Assembly (NCBI GenBank): GCA_022822135.1
Contig: JAJECH010000062.1
Location: 18,498 to 82,497, forward strand
Length of the DNA stretch: 64,000 bases
DNA from: Pseudomonadales bacterium
GTDB taxonomy: Bacteria > Pseudomonadota > Gammaproteobacteria > Pseudomonadales > Azotimanducaceae
Reading direction: 5' to 3'
Shown: piece by piece, positions 2 to 20,553 of the stretch
Layout: each line of letters starts with the position of its first letter
Position numbering within the stretch: position 1 is the stretch's first letter
Notes under the pieces: generated by a model
Seen by the model: only the letters and a program-made list of their open reading frames with translations
What the model was told of the DNA's origin: nothing
Database searches by the model: none
Translations under genes and position numbers: made by a program

Positions 2-1195
2 TGGTTTGACAACTACCTCGGCGTGGTCTCGCTCGTACGCGTGTTTGCTGGTGAACTTCGTAAAGGCGACCGAATCGTTGCTTATTCAGTCGGACAGACT
101 CACACGATTGACGAAGTTGGCGTCTTCACGCCACGTCGAGAAAAAGTAGACGTGCTGCAAAGTGGGGAAGTTGGTTACGTCGTTGCAGGTATCAAGGAAA
201 TCCACGGGGCACCCGTCGGAGATACGCTGGTTTTTGCCAATAGCGAAACACCCGCGCTACCAGGATTCGCGAAAGCGAAGCCACAGATTTTTGCAGGGTT
301 GTACCCGTCTAACTCAGACGACTTTGAAGCGATGCGAATCGCGTTAGAAAAACTCTGCTTGAATGACGCAGCGTTGCACTTTGAGGTCGAAACATCGGAT
401 GCACTAGGTTTCGGTTTTCGCTGTGGTTTCCTCGGGATGCTCCACATGGAGATCGTGCAGGAACGGTTAGAGCGTGAATACGACCTTGACCTCATCACGT
501 CCGCACCGTCGGTAGTCTACGAGGTAGTCGACCGAGACGGCGAAACCTTACGGATCGACAATCCCTCCCAGCTTGATGATTCCGGTCGTATTGTGGAGAT
601 CCGCGAACCGATTGCCGAGGTCAACATACTGGTGCCACCCGACTATCTCGGTAATGTCATCGAGCTTTGCATTGGTCGGCGAGGCGTGCAGAGAAGCATG
701 CTCTTCACGGGTGGACAAGTGTCGCTGCGGTTCGATATACCTATGAGTGAGGTCGTGCTTGACTTCTTCGACAAGCTCAAATCGGTCAGTCGAGGCTATG
801 CGTCGCTTGATTACTCATTTGATCGCTTCGAAACGGCACCACTAGTCAAAGTCGATATCTTGATCAACGGAACAAAAATCGACAGCCTAGCGATGATCGT
901 ACATCGTGAACGCGCGAATGCTCGGGGTCGCGAGATGGCTTCATCGATGAAAGCGCTGATCCCAAGACAAATGTTCGACGTTGCAATTCAGGCCGCGATC
1001 GGGCGACAAGTGATCGCTCGTACGACCGTCAAAGCGTACCGTAAAAACGTTACCGCGAAGTGCTACGGCGGCGACGTGACGAGGAAGAAAAAGCTACTCG
1101 AGAAGCAAAAAGAAGGTAAGAAACGTATGAAGCAGGTGGGGAAGGTGGATATTCCACAAGAGGCCTTTCTTGCTGCTTTGAGCGTAGATCGATGA
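2..1195 (+). CDS. lepA: Elongation factor 4 (LepA), 5'-truncated by the window edge
   Basis: The frame is open from nt 2 ([14 protein letters not shown]...). The C-terminal LepA-type domain with the basic tail [25 protein letters not shown] is present. The stop overlaps the next start (ATGA). Confidence 0.95.
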
Positions 1196-1902
1196 AGCTC
1201 AATCTCTACGACGCGATATTCGGGATATTTCGACATTGGCGTCTTCAAACTCGCATAGGGTATCGCTTCAAAGACCTCACCCGTCTAGACGAAGCGTTGA
1301 CGCATGCAAGTGTGGACCGTGTCAACAACGAGCGGCTTGAGTTCCTTGGTGATTCGGTTCTTGAATTGATCGTTTCAGAGTACCTATACCGCCAGTACTC
1401 CGATATCGATGAAGGTACGTTGACGCAGTTGAAGATCATGAGTGTTAACAACGTGCATTTGCAGTCCGTCGCGCTTAATCTCGGTTTGGATGAGCAGTTG
1501 TTTATTGGGAAAGGTATGTACAACGTTGAAAACCGTGGCGTCAAAATGTATGCGGACGTTGTTGAAGCGTTGATCGGCGCAATTTACATCGATGGAGGTC
1601 TTCGGCCCGCGCGTAAGTTCATTGACAAATTTGTGATACAGACCTTGCCGACGCTTGAAGAAACTCAAATGCACCCGAAGACGGCGCTTCAGAATTGGGT
1701 ATCGAAGCAAGGTATGGAATATCCGGAATACGATGTTGTGCAAGATCCTAAACGGTCTGGCGGTTCCGATTGGCACGTTAAGTGCACAATCAAGCGACTT
1801 GCCATCACACGTACCGCTGCAGCTCGCTCTCGCAAGGCTGCAGAAACAGAAGCGGCTCGGCAGATTTTGGATTCGTTAGGCATCATGGCAAATGGTGCTT
1901 GA
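1192..1902 (+). CDS. rnc: Ribonuclease III, paralog 1 (nuclease domain plus dsRBD)
   Basis: It has the RNase III signature [16 protein letters not shown] and the second catalytic segment [19 protein letters not shown]-terminal dsRBD is present (KTALQNWV...[15 protein letters not shown]). It retains the DEG motif. Confidence 0.85.
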
Positions 1903-1935
1903 GAGCGCCTAATTTTTGGGCGCGATTGATTCTCG

Positions 1936-2607
1936 ATGAATGAAAAGGACCTTGCTGACTTGCAAGACGCCATTGGCTACCAATTCAAGGACACGTCGAT
2001 TCTTGAACGAGCGTTGGTGCACGCAAGCGCGGACGTCGAAAACAACGAGCGTCTCGAATTCCTTGGCGACGCAGCCTTGGGCTATGCGGTGAGTTCGGCG
2101 TTGTTCGAACGCATGTCAAAAAAGTCAGTGGGTGTGTTGGCGGAACGAAAATCCATCCTCGTCAGCAATAAACGTCTGACACAGGTTGCAGTTTCGTTAG
2201 GTATCGATAAGCGCATGCGGTTAGGTAACAGCATCGCAAACAATCGGACGGTTAATCGAAAGATCTATGCAGACGCACTTGAGGCTGTGATCGGTGCAAT
2301 TTCGATGGACGGGGGACTTGACGCGGTTCAGGCATTTGTCGATCAGCACCTCTATCCGCTTGAAAGTAAACCCTTGGATTTAGAGCGGCATGCGAAGTCA
2401 CGGTTACAGGAGTGGGCTGATTGGGCGGGTTTTGAGTCGCCAGTTTACGATGTCGTCAAGCATGAATCTCACCCGAACGGCGAACTTTGGCAGGTGCACT
2501 GTACGGTCAAAGACCTCAACCACGACGGTGAAGGCGTCGCACACTCGAAACGGGAAGCAGAACGCATCGCCGCGGAAGTCCTTCTGTACAAAATCGGTGG
2601 GAAATGA
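1936..2607 (+). CDS. rnc: Ribonuclease III, paralog 2 (nuclease domain plus dsRBD)
   Basis: It has the signature [16 protein letters not shown], the segment YADALEAVIGAISMDGG, and a dsRBD (KSRLQEWA...HSKREAERIAAEVL). Its stop overlaps the era start, which is the usual rnc-era coupling. Confidence 0.85.
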   Translation: MNEKDLADLQDAIGYQFKDTSILERALVHASADVENNERLEFLGDAALGYAVSSALFERMSKKSVGVLAERKSILVSNKRLTQVAVSLGIDKRMRLGNSIANNRTVNRKIYADALEAVIGAISMDGGLDAVQAFVDQHLYPLESKPLDLERHAKSRLQEWADWAGFESPVYDVVKHESHPNGELWQVHCTVKDLNHDGEGVAHSKREAERIAAEVLLYKIGGK

Positions 2608-3503
2608 ACACCGCAACCAAGTCAGGCTACATCACGATCATCGGACGACCCAACGTTGGTAAGTCCACGCTCCTGAATCATTGCCTCGACATGAAACTGA
2701 GCATCACGTCGCGGAAGCCCCAGACGACACGACATCAATTACTTGGTGTGCTAACCCGCGGTTCGTGTCAGTTTATGTTTCTGGACACACCGGGCATCAA
2801 TGCTGGGCGTAAACGAACGGGAAGTTCCATAGAACGATACATGAACCGCCAAGCGCTGAGTACGCTCAACGATGTTGACGTGATCTTGTTCTTGGTTGAA
2901 GGTACGGGTTGGCGCGATGGCGATGCGACGGTGCTCAAGCACCTTGCGAAGACCGACTTACCGGTCATCTGCGTACTCACCAAAGTTGACCGTGTTCGAA
3001 ACAAATCGCAGCTATTACCACTCATCGAAAAGGTAGCAAGTAAGAGTAAATTTCAGGCTATAGTCCCGGTCGCAGCATTGCGCAATGAAGGATTGGACAT
3101 GTTGCTCGACGCTATCGAAAGCGAACTAGAGGAAGGACCTCACCTGTTTAACGCGGATGAGGTAACGGATCGCTCAACCTCGTTTCTGGTCGGTGAAATG
3201 ATTCGTGAACAGGTCGTTAGACAATTAGGGGCTGAATTACCGCATCGAAGCACCGTACTCGTCGAACGATTCGAAGAGGCGCAAGACCAGACTACGATTT
3301 TTGCATCCATCTGCATCGAGCGTGACAGTCAAAAACGCATAGTCATCGGGAAAGGCGGTAGTCGACTCCGGTCGATCGGCGAAGCTGCACGTCACAACAT
3401 CGCAGATTTTCTGGGCAAGAGCATCGATCTACGTTTGCACGTTCGGGTGCGATCAGGTTGGACTGAGAGCCACAAGCACCTAGCTGAATTCGGTTACAAG
3501 TAG
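2604..3503 (+). CDS. era: GTPase Era
   Basis: The G1 motif GRPNVGKST, DTPG and TKVD are present. A C-terminal KH domain is present (VIGKGGSRLRSIG). The position after rnc is conserved. Confidence 0.95.
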   Translation: MNTATKSGYITIIGRPNVGKSTLLNHCLDMKLSITSRKPQTTRHQLLGVLTRGSCQFMFLDTPGINAGRKRTGSSIERYMNRQALSTLNDVDVILFLVEGTGWRDGDATVLKHLAKTDLPVICVLTKVDRVRNKSQLLPLIEKVASKSKFQAIVPVAALRNEGLDMLLDAIESELEEGPHLFNADEVTDRSTSFLVGEMIREQVVRQLGAELPHRSTVLVERFEEAQDQTTIFASICIERDSQKRIVIGKGGSRLRSIGEAARHNIADFLGKSIDLRLHVRVRSGWTESHKHLAEFGYK

Positions 3504-3510
3504 TTCAACG

Positions 3511-4230
3511 ATGCTTCACGAAACCTGTTACGTACTTCGCAGGCGCGCCTACAGCGAAACCAGCCTCCTTCTGGAAATGCTGACGAGCGAATCACGTTAC
3601 GTTCACGCAATGTATCGCGGTGCGAAACGTAACGGGTCGACTCCGATCGATCTTTTTTCTGAGTACGCGATGAGCTGGCGTCCGCGGGATGGCTTGGTCA
3701 CGCTTCGGTCGTGTGAGCTCAAGCACGTTTCTACGCTAGGTGGTAATGCGCTTTACGCCGGACTATATGTCAATGAACTCGTGCGACGCGGCATGCGTGA
3801 AAACCAAGTTGTCGATGACGTGCAACCAGCGTACCAGTCCGCGGTGACCTCCCTCGAACAAGCAGAGGCAGACTTGGATGTCGTGCTGCGATCGTTCGAG
3901 AAGCGGTTCCTTAAGGCATTGGGTTTTGAGCTGGAATTCCATCGCGAGCAAGCGACCGGCGACGTAATCTCGTCAAATTCCAACTATCTATTTGACCCGA
4001 TCCTAGGGTTTACGAAGTCAGCGGATGCTGAAGAAACATCTTATCCTGGACACGTGCTTTTGAATATATCTGTTAATCGATTCGAACAACCCGAAACGCG
4101 CCAAGCAGCAAAATTAATACTTCGGGACGCACTTTATCACCATCTCGGTGAAAGAGCATTAAAAGCGAGATCGCTTTTGTCCGCTAAGCAATATCGTGAG
4201 GAAGTCTCCGGAGCGACCGCACATGACTGA
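3511..4230 (+). CDS. recO: DNA repair protein RecO
   Basis: The size (239 aa), the N-terminal OB-fold-like YVLRRRAYSETSLLLEMLT, and the conserved era-recO synteny all fit RecO. Confidence 0.85.
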   Translation: MLHETCYVLRRRAYSETSLLLEMLTSESRYVHAMYRGAKRNGSTPIDLFSEYAMSWRPRDGLVTLRSCELKHVSTLGGNALYAGLYVNELVRRGMRENQVVDDVQPAYQSAVTSLEQAEADLDVVLRSFEKRFLKALGFELEFHREQATGDVISSNSNYLFDPILGFTKSADAEETSYPGHVLLNISVNRFEQPETRQAAKLILRDALYHHLGERALKARSLLSAKQYREEVSGATAHD

Positions 4231-6154
4231 GCTCGCGGACAAACCTGACCTGAACTCGCATTGGTTCATCAGCAAAACTCGGTCAAGGATTGAGTTAACC
4301 GAAACCAATCGCGAATTAATCGAACATATAGAGTGTGCTCTATCTACAGCTGATCTTCAAGAACAGGCTAACCTACTCGTTGACCAGCTACTGCACTTGC
4401 CGGTGGATTCGCCAACGCTTATCGCTGGTTTAGCGTTCTTTGCAGCGACCGATGGTGACTTAGATCCGAACACGCTCGGCACTGGTGATGCCGGCAATCT
4501 GCTTTCGACTTTGGTACGACTCTCAAGTGCTGACTCGGCTGCTACGACCAGTGCGCTACTCCAGGTTCGCCGTAATCGACGACAATCCGACAACGTGCGC
4601 CGCATGCTGGTGGCAATGATCGACGATCCACGCGTGGTCGTGTTGAAGATGGCAGAACGGTTGGTCCGATTACATCCAAGGCGCTTCGATGGATCTGAGG
4701 AAAGCAGACGTGCCGCCAGCGAGGTCCTTCACTTTTACGCGCCGCTCGCCAGTCGGCTCGGTATTTGGCAGCTAAAGTGGGTTCTCGAGGATTTCGCGTT
4801 TCGTTGCCTTCAACCAGATGATTACTTAGACATCGCGTCGCGGTTCAAAGAACGGCGATCACAGCGGGAAGAGCTGGTATCGAAGATTCAATCCGATCTA
4901 CGCTGGCGATTGAATGAACTTGGCATCACTGCAGAAATCCTGGGTCGCGCCAAGAACATCTACGGTATCTATCGCAAGATGCGTGAGAAAGACATCGCCT
5001 TTAACGATGTTCACGACGTGCTTGCCATACGAGTGATTGTTGATTCCGTGCCTGAGTGTTATCAGGTCCTGGGCGTGGTGCACATGTCATGGCCATACAT
5101 AGGTGCGGAATTCGACGATTACATCGCCAATCCCAAGTCAAACGGCTATCGGTCGCTGCACACTGCAGTCTATGGACCGCAGGGAAGGGTCTTAGAAGTT
5201 CAGATACGCACGCGCGAGATGCATGTCGATTCCGAGTTGGGTGTTTGCTCGCATTGGAGTTACAAGGGCGAAAACGACGCGAGTCTGGAAGATGAATCGA
5301 TCGACTGGATGCGTGAAGTACTAAATTGGCATGAAGCGCTTGATCCGGTAGAAGACACTGACGCGACAAGTCGCGAAAACAGCGACGCCGAAAAGAAGAC
5401 CTACGTTTCAACACCTCAACGACACATCGTTGATTTAGAAGCAGGATCGACAGCTCTCGACTTCGCGTTCAAAGTACATACGGACATCGGGCTACATTGC
5501 GTGGGGGCTCTGGTCGACGGCGAAGAAGCTGCTTTAAACACCGAATTGAAGACGGGACAGACCGTTGAGATATTGACGCAACCGCGTGCGACGCCGCAGC
5601 GCCGGTGGCTCGACCCAGACCTGATGTACTTCAAGACCTCGAAGACGCGTGAATTACTGCGGGGCTACTTTCAAGACTTCGATCGCACACACAATGCGAA
5701 AGCTGGTCGAGATTGGGTGCAGCAAGAGATCGATCGCTTAAACCTGAAACTAACTCCAGAAGAAGCGGCGCGGGCACTAGATTTCGGTTCGCCTGATGAA
5801 CTGTTTATCGAGGTAGCCTTGGGTTCGATGAAAGCACGACAGATGCTGGTGGAGATCGCTCAACTTCAGTTCGAAGTGAGTGAAGTGCTGCAGACCGACG
5901 AAGACTCAAAAGTCACGATGCAAATCCACTTGTCAGCACTGGATCGCAAGAATCTGATACGTGATATCACACGCGAAATTGCGGAGTTGAATGTGAACAT
6001 CGTCAATCTCAAACTTGGCGCGCCGGCACTAGATAAAGAAGCGACCGCAGATATTTGGGTGCAAGTTAGCGGATTGGGCGAAGCATCCTTGGTCATCGTG
6101 AGCTTGCGACGTCTACACCGTGTCACTGATGTTCGGTTAGTGGGCTCCGGTTAA
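4223..6154 (+). CDS. relA: GTP pyrophosphokinase RelA-like RSH protein with a degenerate hydrolase domain, a synthetase domain, TGS and a C-terminal ACT/RRM domain; no ZFD/CC segment
   Basis: DNVRRMLVAMIDDPRVVVLKMAERL and the synthetase core YGIYRKMREKDIAFNDVHDVLAIRVIV...GYRSLHTAV are present. A TGS domain (TGQTVEILT) is present. I prefer the ATG at 4223 (GGAG 9 nt upstream) over the GTG at 4196. Confidence 0.85.
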   Translation: MTELADKPDLNSHWFISKTRSRIELTETNRELIEHIECALSTADLQEQANLLVDQLLHLPVDSPTLIAGLAFFAATDGDLDPNTLGTGDAGNLLSTLVRLSSADSAATTSALLQVRRNRRQSDNVRRMLVAMIDDPRVVVLKMAERLVRLHPRRFDGSEESRRAASEVLHFYAPLASRLGIWQLKWVLEDFAFRCLQPDDYLDIASRFKERRSQREELVSKIQSDLRWRLNELGITAEILGRAKNIYGIYRKMREKDIAFNDVHDVLAIRVIVDSVPECYQVLGVVHMSWPYIGAEFDDYIANPKSNGYRSLHTAVYGPQGRVLEVQIRTREMHVDSELGVCSHWSYKGENDASLEDESIDWMREVLNWHEALDPVEDTDATSRENSDAEKKTYVSTPQRHIVDLEAGSTALDFAFKVHTDIGLHCVGALVDGEEAALNTELKTGQTVEILTQPRATPQRRWLDPDLMYFKTSKTRELLRGYFQDFDRTHNAKAGRDWVQQEIDRLNLKLTPEEAARALDFGSPDELFIEVALGSMKARQMLVEIAQLQFEVSEVLQTDEDSKVTMQIHLSALDRKNLIRDITREIAELNVNIVNLKLGAPALDKEATADIWVQVSGLGEASLVIVSLRRLHRVTDVRLVGSG

Positions 6155-18336: not shown

Positions 18337-20553
18337 ATGGCGGAAGCAGTAGATTTAAAAGCAATCGGAACCAGACCCGTTCGACCTGATGGTGTCGAGA
18401 AAGTAACTGGAAGGGCTAACTTTGGCGCGGATTTGAACTTGCCTGGCATGCTCCATGGCAAGATTCTTCGAAGCCCCCATGCACACGCCCGCATCAAGAG
18501 TGTTGATCTCTCTGGAGCCTTGGCGATGGACGGCGTTCTGGCGGCGGTCTCTGGCAAGGATATTCCGGGTGGTGGGGATCTTGGCGACAACGTGCTCGCG
18601 AAGGACAAGGCTTTGTATCACGGTCATGCGGTAGCGGCGGTTGCTGCGAGATCAGCATACATCGCGGAACTAGCGCTCGACGAAATCAAGGTTGAGTACG
18701 AAGTGCTCAATCCCGTGATGTCCATTGACGATGCGATCGCCGATGGTGCGACACTCGTGAATGAGTCATTGCACACGAACGGCGATACCTCACAACCGGC
18801 TAGCAACATTGCGGCGATTACCAAATTCGAACGCGGCGACGTCGACCAAGGTTTCGCGGACGCTGATGTTGTCGTTGAAGGCGAGTATCGCGTACCAACT
18901 GCGCATCAGGGGTATATCGAACCTCACGCGTGTACGGCCACGATCAACGAAGAGGGCAAGGCGACCGTATGGTGTTGTACACAAGGTCAATTTGACGTAC
19001 GCAGCATGACGGCGAACTGCTTGAATAAGCAGGTGAGTGACATTCGTGTTATTCCCTCCGAGATCGGCGGTGGCTTTGGTGGAAAGACAACGATCTATCT
19101 AGAACCCGTTGCGGTCAAGTTGTCGGAAATTAGCGGACGTCCTGTGAAGATGGTGATGTCACGCGAAGAAGTATTCCGTGCAACTGGACCGACTTCAGCC
19201 ACGCTTTGTCGTGCGAAAGTTGGTGCGAAGAAAGACGGCACGATCACAGCCGCCACTGCATGGTTAGCTTATGAAGCGGGTGCGTTCGCGGGTGCACCTG
19301 TCGGACCTGGTTGTATGTCGGTGCTTGCACCTTATGACTTGGAGAACTTCAGAATCGAAGGTCATGACGTACTCGTCACTAAGCCGAAAGTCGCGGCATA
19401 TCGCGCCCCGGGTGCTCCGCAATCCATGCACGCCATGGAATGCGCGATCGACGAACTCGCGCGAAAGCTGGACATGGATCCAATCGATCTACGGCTCAAG
19501 AATGCAGCCGATGAAGGTACCGTTGCTCCTTATGGACCGCAGTTCCCAGCAATCGGTTTACGTGCTTGCCTAGAGGCGGCAAAGGTTCATCCGAACTACA
19601 CGACGCCTCCGGCTGAAGGCCAGGGACGCGGTGTTGCGGTTGGATTCTGGTTCAACATTGGTATGCAGTCAAGCGCAGAGATCCGAATCGCTGAAAATGG
19701 TGCGGTCACCATCATGGAAGGCAGTCCCGATATCGGCGGATCACGCGCCTCAATGTGCTTGATGGCTGCTGAAACACTCGGCATCCCGTATGAGAACATC
19801 AACGCGCACGTCGGCGATACTGAAGCAACGGGTTATTGCAACACCACCGGCGGCAGCCGGACCACGTTCGCAACCGGTATGGCAGTCATCGAAGCATGTG
19901 AAGACATCATTGCACAATGCAAGGAGCGTGCCGCACTGACGTGGGAACTTGATGTTGATCAAGTCGATTGGGAAGACGGTCAAGCGATACCGAAACCAGG
20001 TGTGAACGCAGACGTCAAACCATTGAGTTTGGCGGATATCGCACGTTCGGCAGGCCGAACCGGTGGTCCGTTGCTCGGTCGCGCTAGTTTGAACGCGCAA
20101 GGTCCTGGTGCTTCGTTCTCTGTCAACTGGACCGATGTCGAAGTCGATCGCGAGACAGGTAAGGTCGATGTGAAGGCGTTCACCGGTGTGCAAGATGCAG
20201 GTCGAGCGATTCACCCATCGTACGTCGAAGGTCAGATGCAAGGTGGCGCAGTTCAAGGACTGGGTTGGGCACTCAATGAGGAGTACATCTATGACGCGGA
20301 TGGCGTCATGGAAAACGCTGGATTCCTCGACTATCGTGTGCCAGTGACTTCTGACATGCCAATGATCGATACACAGATTGTTGAAGTACCGAATCCATCG
20401 CACCCGTACGGTGTACGAGGGGTAGGTGAGACGCCGATTGTGGCGCCGCTCGCAGCTACTTCAAATGCTGTACGTGACGCGCTCGGTTTTCGAATCAACG
20501 ATTTGCCGCTGTCCCCACCTCGTGTGTTAGCAGCGATCGACGAAAACGAATAG
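18337..20553 (+). CDS. Xanthine dehydrogenase family, molybdopterin-binding (large) subunit; aldehyde oxidoreductase-like
   Basis: The size is 738 aa. The motifs GGGFGGK, AAYRAPGAPQ and GVGETPIV are present. The CODH-type active-site loop is absent. Confidence 0.92.
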   Translation: MAEAVDLKAIGTRPVRPDGVEKVTGRANFGADLNLPGMLHGKILRSPHAHARIKSVDLSGALAMDGVLAAVSGKDIPGGGDLGDNVLAKDKALYHGHAVAAVAARSAYIAELALDEIKVEYEVLNPVMSIDDAIADGATLVNESLHTNGDTSQPASNIAAITKFERGDVDQGFADADVVVEGEYRVPTAHQGYIEPHACTATINEEGKATVWCCTQGQFDVRSMTANCLNKQVSDIRVIPSEIGGGFGGKTTIYLEPVAVKLSEISGRPVKMVMSREEVFRATGPTSATLCRAKVGAKKDGTITAATAWLAYEAGAFAGAPVGPGCMSVLAPYDLENFRIEGHDVLVTKPKVAAYRAPGAPQSMHAMECAIDELARKLDMDPIDLRLKNAADEGTVAPYGPQFPAIGLRACLEAAKVHPNYTTPPAEGQGRGVAVGFWFNIGMQSSAEIRIAENGAVTIMEGSPDIGGSRASMCLMAAETLGIPYENINAHVGDTEATGYCNTTGGSRTTFATGMAVIEACEDIIAQCKERAALTWELDVDQVDWEDGQAIPKPGVNADVKPLSLADIARSAGRTGGPLLGRASLNAQGPGASFSVNWTDVEVDRETGKVDVKAFTGVQDAGRAIHPSYVEGQMQGGAVQGLGWALNEEYIYDADGVMENAGFLDYRVPVTSDMPMIDTQIVEVPNPSHPYGVRGVGETPIVAPLAATSNAVRDALGFRINDLPLSPPRVLAAIDENE

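Follow-up and report, generated by a model that had tools for sequence, protein, structure and literature searches.

A tandem pair of diverged class-1 RNase III genes in the lepA-era operon of a lineage of marine Pseudomonadales

The 64,000-nucleotide stretch analysed here (contig JAJECH010000062.1 of a Pseudomonadales bacterium, positions 18,498 to 82,497; referred to below as the window) carries two adjacent genes for ribonuclease III (RNase III) on its forward strand, designated rnc1 (1192-1902; product Rnc1, 236 amino acids) and rnc2 (1936-2607; product Rnc2, 223 amino acids). The pair very probably goes back to a single tandem duplication of the housekeeping rnc gene, an old event confined to this lineage, after which both copies persisted as diverged and apparently active class-1 enzymes, Rnc1 being the slowly and Rnc2 the faster evolving paralog. 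The Dicer/Drosha superfamily has RNase III as its founding member and, to our knowledge, bacterial RNase III is regarded as one homodimeric enzyme per organism, a few dispersed paralogs aside. What is new here is a stably inherited, adjacent rnc pair with a fixed E65V substitution, which is unusual for bacteria and of which no description was found in the searchable full-text literature. The pair represents a natural experiment in how a symmetric double-stranded RNA (dsRNA) nuclease subdivides its work and how asymmetry might arise, with the fixed change falling at a residue known to control the stability of the RNA complex.

Both genes encode complete class-1 RNase III

The two paralogs were shown to share 40 % identity (86/213 residues) in a gapless BLASTP alignment (E = 1e-51), and are the sole RNase III-domain genes of the 3.75-Mb host assembly, which is 97.6 % complete. 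Both exceed the curated cut-off (166.25 bits) of TIGR02191, the NCBIfam equivalog for class-1 RNase III, with scores of 188.5 (Rnc1) and 179.9 bits (Rnc2), and both contain the Pfam domains Ribonuclease_3/Ribonucleas_3_3 and dsrm. Each nuclease domain (RIIID) carries the NERLEFLGD signature and four metal-binding carboxylates, and is followed by a single C-terminal dsRNA-binding domain (dsRBD; PF00035, 30.5 bits for Rnc1 and 33.8 bits for Rnc2, cut-off 23). The presence of a dsRBD in both proteins sets them apart from Mini-III (MrnC), which is defined by its lack of this domain.

Protein structure predictions using AlphaFold2 (AF2), based on 81-sequence alignments, yielded mean confidence (pLDDT) values of 85.3 for Rnc1 and 89.1 for Rnc2, with an alpha-beta-beta-beta-alpha dsRBD unit predicted in both models. 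Foldseek returned Escherichia coli RNase III (7r97_A) as the best match for both (E = 2e-14 and 5e-17, respectively), the Rnc2 model aligning to 7r97 with a TM-score of 0.75, while the nuclease domains superpose on Campylobacter jejuni RNase III (3o2r) at 1.1-1.5 Å. Rnc1 and Rnc2 are therefore ordinary members of the known class-1 RNase III family. A reading of the DNA made without database searches (the sequence-only reading) had described two full-length RNase III genes in tandem, each with a nuclease domain and a complete dsRBD, separated by 33 nt and coupled to lepA (ATGA) and era; all of this was borne out.

Distribution and age of the pair

Among 24 other species of the window's GTDB genus, the tandem pair was observed in five and a single copy in 18, with no match in G014. 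The pair was identified in the host genome (G000) and in G001, G008, G009, G017 and G023. Further loci with it come from three metagenome-assembled genomes (MAGs; COS bins, loci L017-L019) and from five deeper metagenomic lineages. The Rnc1 proteins of the five deeper lineages are 56-65 % identical to that of the window, and in each of these lineages the gene order is M32 peptidase-lepA-rnc1-rnc2-era-recO-relA. Rnc2 adjoins an Rnc1-type gene in 14 of 14 loci. Synonymous sites are saturated across the at least 14 lineages carrying the pair, which the duplication must predate, in agreement with the sequence-only reading that it was not recent. An assembly artefact was ruled out, as independent assemblies, including several single contigs of 3-4 Mb, display the same gene order.

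Near-identical loci are found in MAGs of marine origin that bear the label Pseudomonadales or Candidatus Azotimanducaceae, and a 98 % identical locus resides on a 3.68-Mb chromosome (OZ244815.1). The family corresponds to the former HTCC2089 group, which comprises mainly free-living seawater bacteria (PMC12625764). In a collection of 5.8 billion proteins, the Rnc1 type is represented by 22 clusters, after which identity falls from 56 % to 38 %, and the Rnc2 type by approximately 24 clusters down to 43 % identity; many of these Rnc1- and Rnc2-type clusters share contigs.

When 400 evenly sampled Gammaproteobacteria were surveyed, only 13 others contained more than one TIGR02191 match, and full-length rnc genes lying side by side were not encountered in any of the other genomes sampled. 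The additional matches in these 13 genomes are dispersed copies or long open reading frames (ORFs) with several RNase III domains. Long ORFs of this kind (G128:C146:8851-11454, G209:C13:10686-11648, G425:C1:25707-26657 and G185:C250:1945-3111) contain two or three consecutive RNase III-domain matches and represent intramolecular tandem RIIIDs that are unrelated to the rnc1/rnc2 pair.

Catalytic and RNA-contacting residues

To compare the paralogs, residues were mapped in E. coli numbering across 29 distinct Rnc1 and 33 distinct Rnc2 sequences. Positions E41, F42, G44, D45, D114 and E117 are invariant in both, save for one F42Y substitution in Rnc1. The Rnc1 protein of the window possesses E38, E41, D45, E65, D114 and E117, and its Rnc2 protein E38, E41, D45, D114 and E117, with valine at position 65. 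This position is glutamate in every Rnc1 (within ..DIDEG..), whereas in Rnc2 (..KKSVG..) it is occupied by valine in 31 sequences, alanine in one and leucine in one. The strictly fixed differences between the paralogs are E65V, L75S, G99S, E162N (in helix 1 of the dsRBD) and R208K. Position 38 is E or D in Rnc2 and E or Q in Rnc1, with Q in 5 of 29 sequences, these being the five deepest lineages. E100 is absent from both paralogs and from the entire genus, leaving the accessory acidic set of the RNA-contacting surface of class-1 enzymes (E38/E65/E100), which is conserved but supplies no catalytic ligand, incomplete in the pair. Position 165, where the glutamine of E. coli RNase III reads the +3 G, is S or K in Rnc1 and D, A or V in Rnc2.

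The five deepest Rnc1 proteins were observed to carry an NNQRLEFLGD signature (E38Q), and their partner Rnc2 proteins retain E38 and have V or L at position 65 (L047-L050). In these lineages, each paralog has thus neutralised a different carboxylate at the ends of the catalytic valley. Rnc1 also possesses a conserved aromatic/basic N-terminal extension of approximately 10 amino acids (WDAxVDxWRY in the deep lineages), predicted by AF2 to be helical (helix 5-14), and a conserved tail, G-V/I-M-x-N-G (G-I/V-M-A-N-G in the window's rnc1 entry).

The catalytic side chains of E. coli RNase III are those of E41, D45, D114 and E117, whereas E38 and E65 are located at the valley ends on the RNA-contacting surface; once the latter two are neutralised, the enzyme-RNA complex is more stable and cooperative 'inside-out' cutting to products of ~22 nt is favoured (Dharavath et al., PMC9291653). 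Rnc2 is accordingly best described, from its residues, as an enzyme expected to have competent metal sites and altered RNA handling, and not as a dead one. The sequence-only reading had noted DEG in the first paralog and SVG in the second and had taken this as a hint of functional divergence; the difference proved to be a lineage-wide, fixed trait, which renders such divergence credible, and the alignment proposed in that reading placed all four catalytic carboxylates in both proteins. As E65 is not one of these four, the 'asymmetric catalytic sites' it had envisaged would amount to asymmetry of the RNA-binding valley and not of the metal sites.

A possible Rnc1:Rnc2 heterodimer

The best surviving alternative holds that the two proteins function obligately or predominantly as an Rnc1:Rnc2 heterodimer with an asymmetric dsRNA valley (E65 at one end, V65 at the other) and different dsRBDs. 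Such an enzyme would bind directionally or cleave with a changed pattern, and would be a bacterial counterpart, encoded by two genes, of RIIIDa/RIIIDb in Drosha and Dicer. Both paralogs descend from a homodimer, their genes always co-occur and are adjacent in a compact operon, which would favour co-assembly, and neither copy was ever lost over a deep radiation. The signature helix is kept in both, including G44 and F42, the latter of which forms the ball-and-socket contact between subunits. In E. coli, mutation of F42 or G44 abolishes activity (PMC8708148), and the ball-and-socket motif has been described together with engineered RNase III heterodimers that are functional (PMC3867540); natural RNase III heterodimers, formed by KREN and KREPB proteins, occur in trypanosome editosomes (PMC9508840).

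However, each protein has what a homodimeric enzyme requires to work by itself, its active site being intact and a dsRBD present, and in most known natural heterodimers one site is dead; a partner with a non-functional site, as in the editosome, is not seen here, the catalytic quartet being present in both paralogs. Positions 47, 51, 55 and 124 are occupied by large residues in Rnc1 (V/I/Y/Y) and by small ones in Rnc2 (A/A/A/A), yet this asymmetry is not specific to heterodimers: among 224 ordinary RNase III proteins, residue volumes covary negatively between positions 47 and 116 (rho -0.32) and positively between 51 and 124 (rho +0.36). The A47/L116 and A51/small-124 combinations of Rnc2 fit this ordinary homodimer covariation, and a knob-into-hole signature of heterodimerisation was consequently rejected. 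A predominant heterodimer is considered unlikely, if still a serious candidate, and the presence of some mixed dimers alongside homodimers somewhat more likely. The most specific version, a two-gene heterodimeric RNase III with two live sites and a valley made asymmetric by E65 versus V65 and by different dsRBD helices 1, appears a little less likely again. If true, it would constitute a free-standing bacterial intermediate of the type postulated between homodimeric RNase III and the Drosha/Dicer RIIIDa/RIIIDb pair, which might orient on its substrates or yield measured, Dicer-like products.

Phylogenetic origin of the paralogs

The relationships of 64 RNase III proteins were inferred by maximum likelihood under LG+C20, and a smaller tree was built as well. 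All RNase III proteins of the genus fall into one clade (100/99), separate from those of other Pseudomonadales and E. coli. Within it, Rnc1 (17 rows, 100/98) and Rnc2 (17 rows, 100/97) are each monophyletic, and the two clades are sisters (93/77), with the single-copy protein of G005 beside them. Furthermore, both paralogs share genus-wide oddities, namely the loss of E100 and Q165 and a histidine at D155. The combination of sister clades inside the genus with these shared oddities argues for one tandem duplication within the lineage as opposed to import.

Horizontal acquisition of one copy and its insertion beside a resident rnc, for which the sequence-only reading had proposed a phylogenetic check, might be suspected because the paralogs, at 40 % identity, are about as distant from each other as from the RNase III proteins of other orders. 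Both trees reject it by placing both copies inside the genus clade, the shared residue losses are at odds with it, and no closer relatives of either paralog were found outside the lineage among the 5.8 billion proteins; it is regarded as highly improbable.

Departure of lepB from the operon

No signal peptidase gene is present between lepA and era, as the sequence-only reading had stated, but its view that the RNase III genes occupy the slot of lepB did not hold, as lepB is missing near rnc in all genus members examined, single-copy species included. Twelve other families of the order show the canonical arrangement lepA-lepB-rnc-era-recO as far as the retrieved sequence extends. In the window's genus, lepB never adjoins rnc in any of the members examined: single-copy G005 and G019 have lepA-rnc-era-recO, G016 has the same order as far as it can be read, its rnc being partly masked, and most other species of the genus have a permease gene upstream of rnc in place of lepA. 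Since single-copy members also lack lepB beside rnc, lepB left the operon before rnc was duplicated, and the new copy is no replacement for it. The lepB gene of the host is located on another contig (G000:C14:25243-25845; 150 bits, ~242 amino acids). There it was observed directly downstream of, and on the same strand as, a gene for an S41 tail-specific protease, which differs from the usual lepA-lepB pairing.

Selection and asymmetric divergence

Nei-Gojobori estimates of omega, obtained from unsaturated pairs, were 0.007-0.06 for rnc1 and 0.08-0.14 for rnc2, compared with 0.01-0.05 for lepA, 0.03-0.07 for era and 0.06-0.13 for recO. Both rnc genes are thus under purifying selection. Non-synonymous divergence (dN) accumulates 2-9 times faster in Rnc2 than in Rnc1 (0.213 versus 0.025 between the window and L017), and the mean fraction of the majority residue is 0.82 in Rnc1 (65 invariant columns) and 0.69 in Rnc2 (38 invariant columns).

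Pseudogenisation of either copy was ruled out by dN/dS and residue conservation, and the decaying duplicate that the sequence-only reading had named as a possible refutation is contradicted by the quartet being intact in both copies. A gradual decay of Rnc2 as a superfluous copy, with Rnc1 alone being of importance, would accord with the elevated dN of Rnc2 and with its loss of E65, a residue whose replacement by alanine inactivates E. coli RNase III in vivo, but is the least probable alternative of all, given an omega of about 0.1, close to that of recO, the lack of frameshifts or stops among 33 distinct sequences, the invariance of the catalytic quartet, of the signature and of the KxxAE motif in the dsRBD, and the retention of the gene in 14 of 14 loci over dS-saturated divergence.

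A proposed division of labour

Under the proposed tandem duplication, the event would have taken place in a sub-lineage of uncultured marine Pseudomonadales (labelled Candidatus Azotimanducaceae by NCBI) in which lepB was already gone from the operon. Both copies would be catalytically active and, as the tight packing of the genes suggests, co-transcribed. Rnc1 would most likely be the general rRNA- and mRNA-processing enzyme, in line with its strong constraint, full acidic set and gained N-terminal aromatic/basic helix. Rnc2 most likely binds and cuts dsRNA with a changed affinity, site choice or product length, as suggested by its faster evolution, the fixed E65V substitution on the rim of the catalytic valley and its variable dsRBD helix 1. 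Mixed dimers may form as well, in view of the homodimeric ancestry and joint production of the two proteins.

Several points weigh against this proposal. The housekeeping role assigned to Rnc1 is the most likely one, and it is based on slower evolution alone. The sister relation of the Rnc1 and Rnc2 clades received moderate support (93/77). The E65A variant of E. coli RNase III is listed as lacking activity in vivo and as weakly active in vitro (Table 1, PMC8708148), and Rnc2 on its own could be a poor nuclease. Finally, we infer co-transcription, activity and division of labour alike from genomic data.

Comparison with known RNase III systems

The pair resembles bacterial Rnc proteins (E. coli P0A7Y0/7r97; Aquifex aeolicus 2ez6/2nug) in its RIIID with one dsRBD, its signature and carboxylates, its predicted fold, its linkage to era and recO and the position of lepA upstream. 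Unlike the standard rnc operon, the locus contains two diverged tandem copies in place of one and no lepB; unlike bacterial Rnc, both copies lack E100 and Q165, Rnc2 has valine for E65 and Rnc1 an extra N-terminal helix.

The 'bacterial Dicer' variants of E. coli RNase III (E38A and E38A/E65A/Q165A; PMC9291653) provide a second point of reference. In Rnc2 both the E65 carboxylate and Q165 are naturally missing, while Rnc1 also lacks Q165 and carries E38Q in five deeper lineages; these coincide with the surface positions at which neutralisation makes the RNA complex more stable and moves products to about 22 nt. However, the natural substitution is to valine and not alanine, the background is 30 % identical, and E38 is kept in Rnc2.

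The KREN1-3/KREPB proteins of trypanosomes and the RIIIDa/RIIIDb domains of Drosha and Dicer likewise represent two diverged RNase III domains that arose by duplication and are made together. Pairing is demonstrated in all of these systems, and one partner is catalytically dead in the editosome, whereas Rnc1 and Rnc2 both have intact sites and their pairing is hypothetical; Drosha and Dicer carry both domains on one polypeptide, whereas rnc1 and rnc2 are separate genes. Duplication followed by specialisation of RNase III is also represented by cyanobacterial paralogs, by Rnc and Mini-III of Bacillus, and by Rnt1 and Dcr1 of budding yeast (PMC3579876). These paralogs are dispersed or differ in architecture (Mini-III has no dsRBD), in contrast to the full-length, adjacent genes in a housekeeping operon observed here.

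Unusual RNase III in single-copy relatives

RNase III appears to evolve unusually throughout the genus, where TIGR02191 scores of ~150-195 bits were obtained, compared with 221-249 bits in other families of the order. In 14 single-copy species (G002, G003, G004, G006, G007, G010, G011, G012, G013, G015, G018, G020, G022 and G024; loci L024-L026, L028, L029, L032-L036, L039, L041, L043 and L045), the sole RNase III-domain gene encodes glycine at catalytic position D114 ('LAG..EA'), often together with E38V/A/K and E65P/Q. These D114G genes are under purifying selection (omega 0.03-0.19), which raises the question of the extent to which the canonical active site is required in vivo. G021, nested among the D114G species, retains aspartate at this position. 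The single rnc of G016 (L037, G016:C82, ~3000-3700) encodes asparagine there ('LANALEA'), with 240 bases of its 5' half masked as N. The rnc gene of G005 (L027, G005:C6, ~3029-3886, minus strand), the single copy nearest the duplicated clade, encodes a 285-amino acid protein with a long N-terminal extension and, separating the nuclease domain from the dsRBD, a Lys/Ala/Pro-rich insertion of ~35 amino acids; its branch in the tree is very long (2.3).

Operon layout and neighbouring genes

The window begins within lepA, of which the 3' part (2-1195, forward strand), encoding the EF4 GTPase, is present; in relatives, a full 599-amino acid LepA with PF06421 is encoded directly upstream of rnc1. The lepA TGA (1193-1195) overlaps the rnc1 ATG (1192-1194), and this 4-nt overlap was found in 9 of 9 loci compared. 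The spacer between rnc1 and rnc2 (1903-1935) is 28-33 nt long across nine orthologous loci and varies in sequence and predicted fold. Its GCGCC...GGCGC stem, considered as a regulatory hairpin, shows no conservation across the eight orthologous spacers and was dismissed, and no other conserved element was seen in a comparison with these eight. The 4-nt lepA overlap and the non-conserved 33-nt spacer leave no space for an rncO-like autoregulatory leader directly before either gene.

The rnc2 TGA overlaps the ATG of era at 2604, an arrangement shared by 6 of 9 loci, with a few bases between the genes in G001 and G017 and a longer gap in G008. The era GTPase gene (2604-3503, orthologs with PF01926 and PF07650), translationally coupled to rnc2, is followed by recO (3511-4230, orthologs with PF11967 and PF02565), the last conserved gene of the rnc-era-recO block, both on the forward strand. 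A RelA/SpoT-family gene (4196-6154) begins inside the 3' end of recO, its listed GTG start at 4196 giving a 35-nt overlap, and the recO-relA adjacency is kept in all tandem loci.

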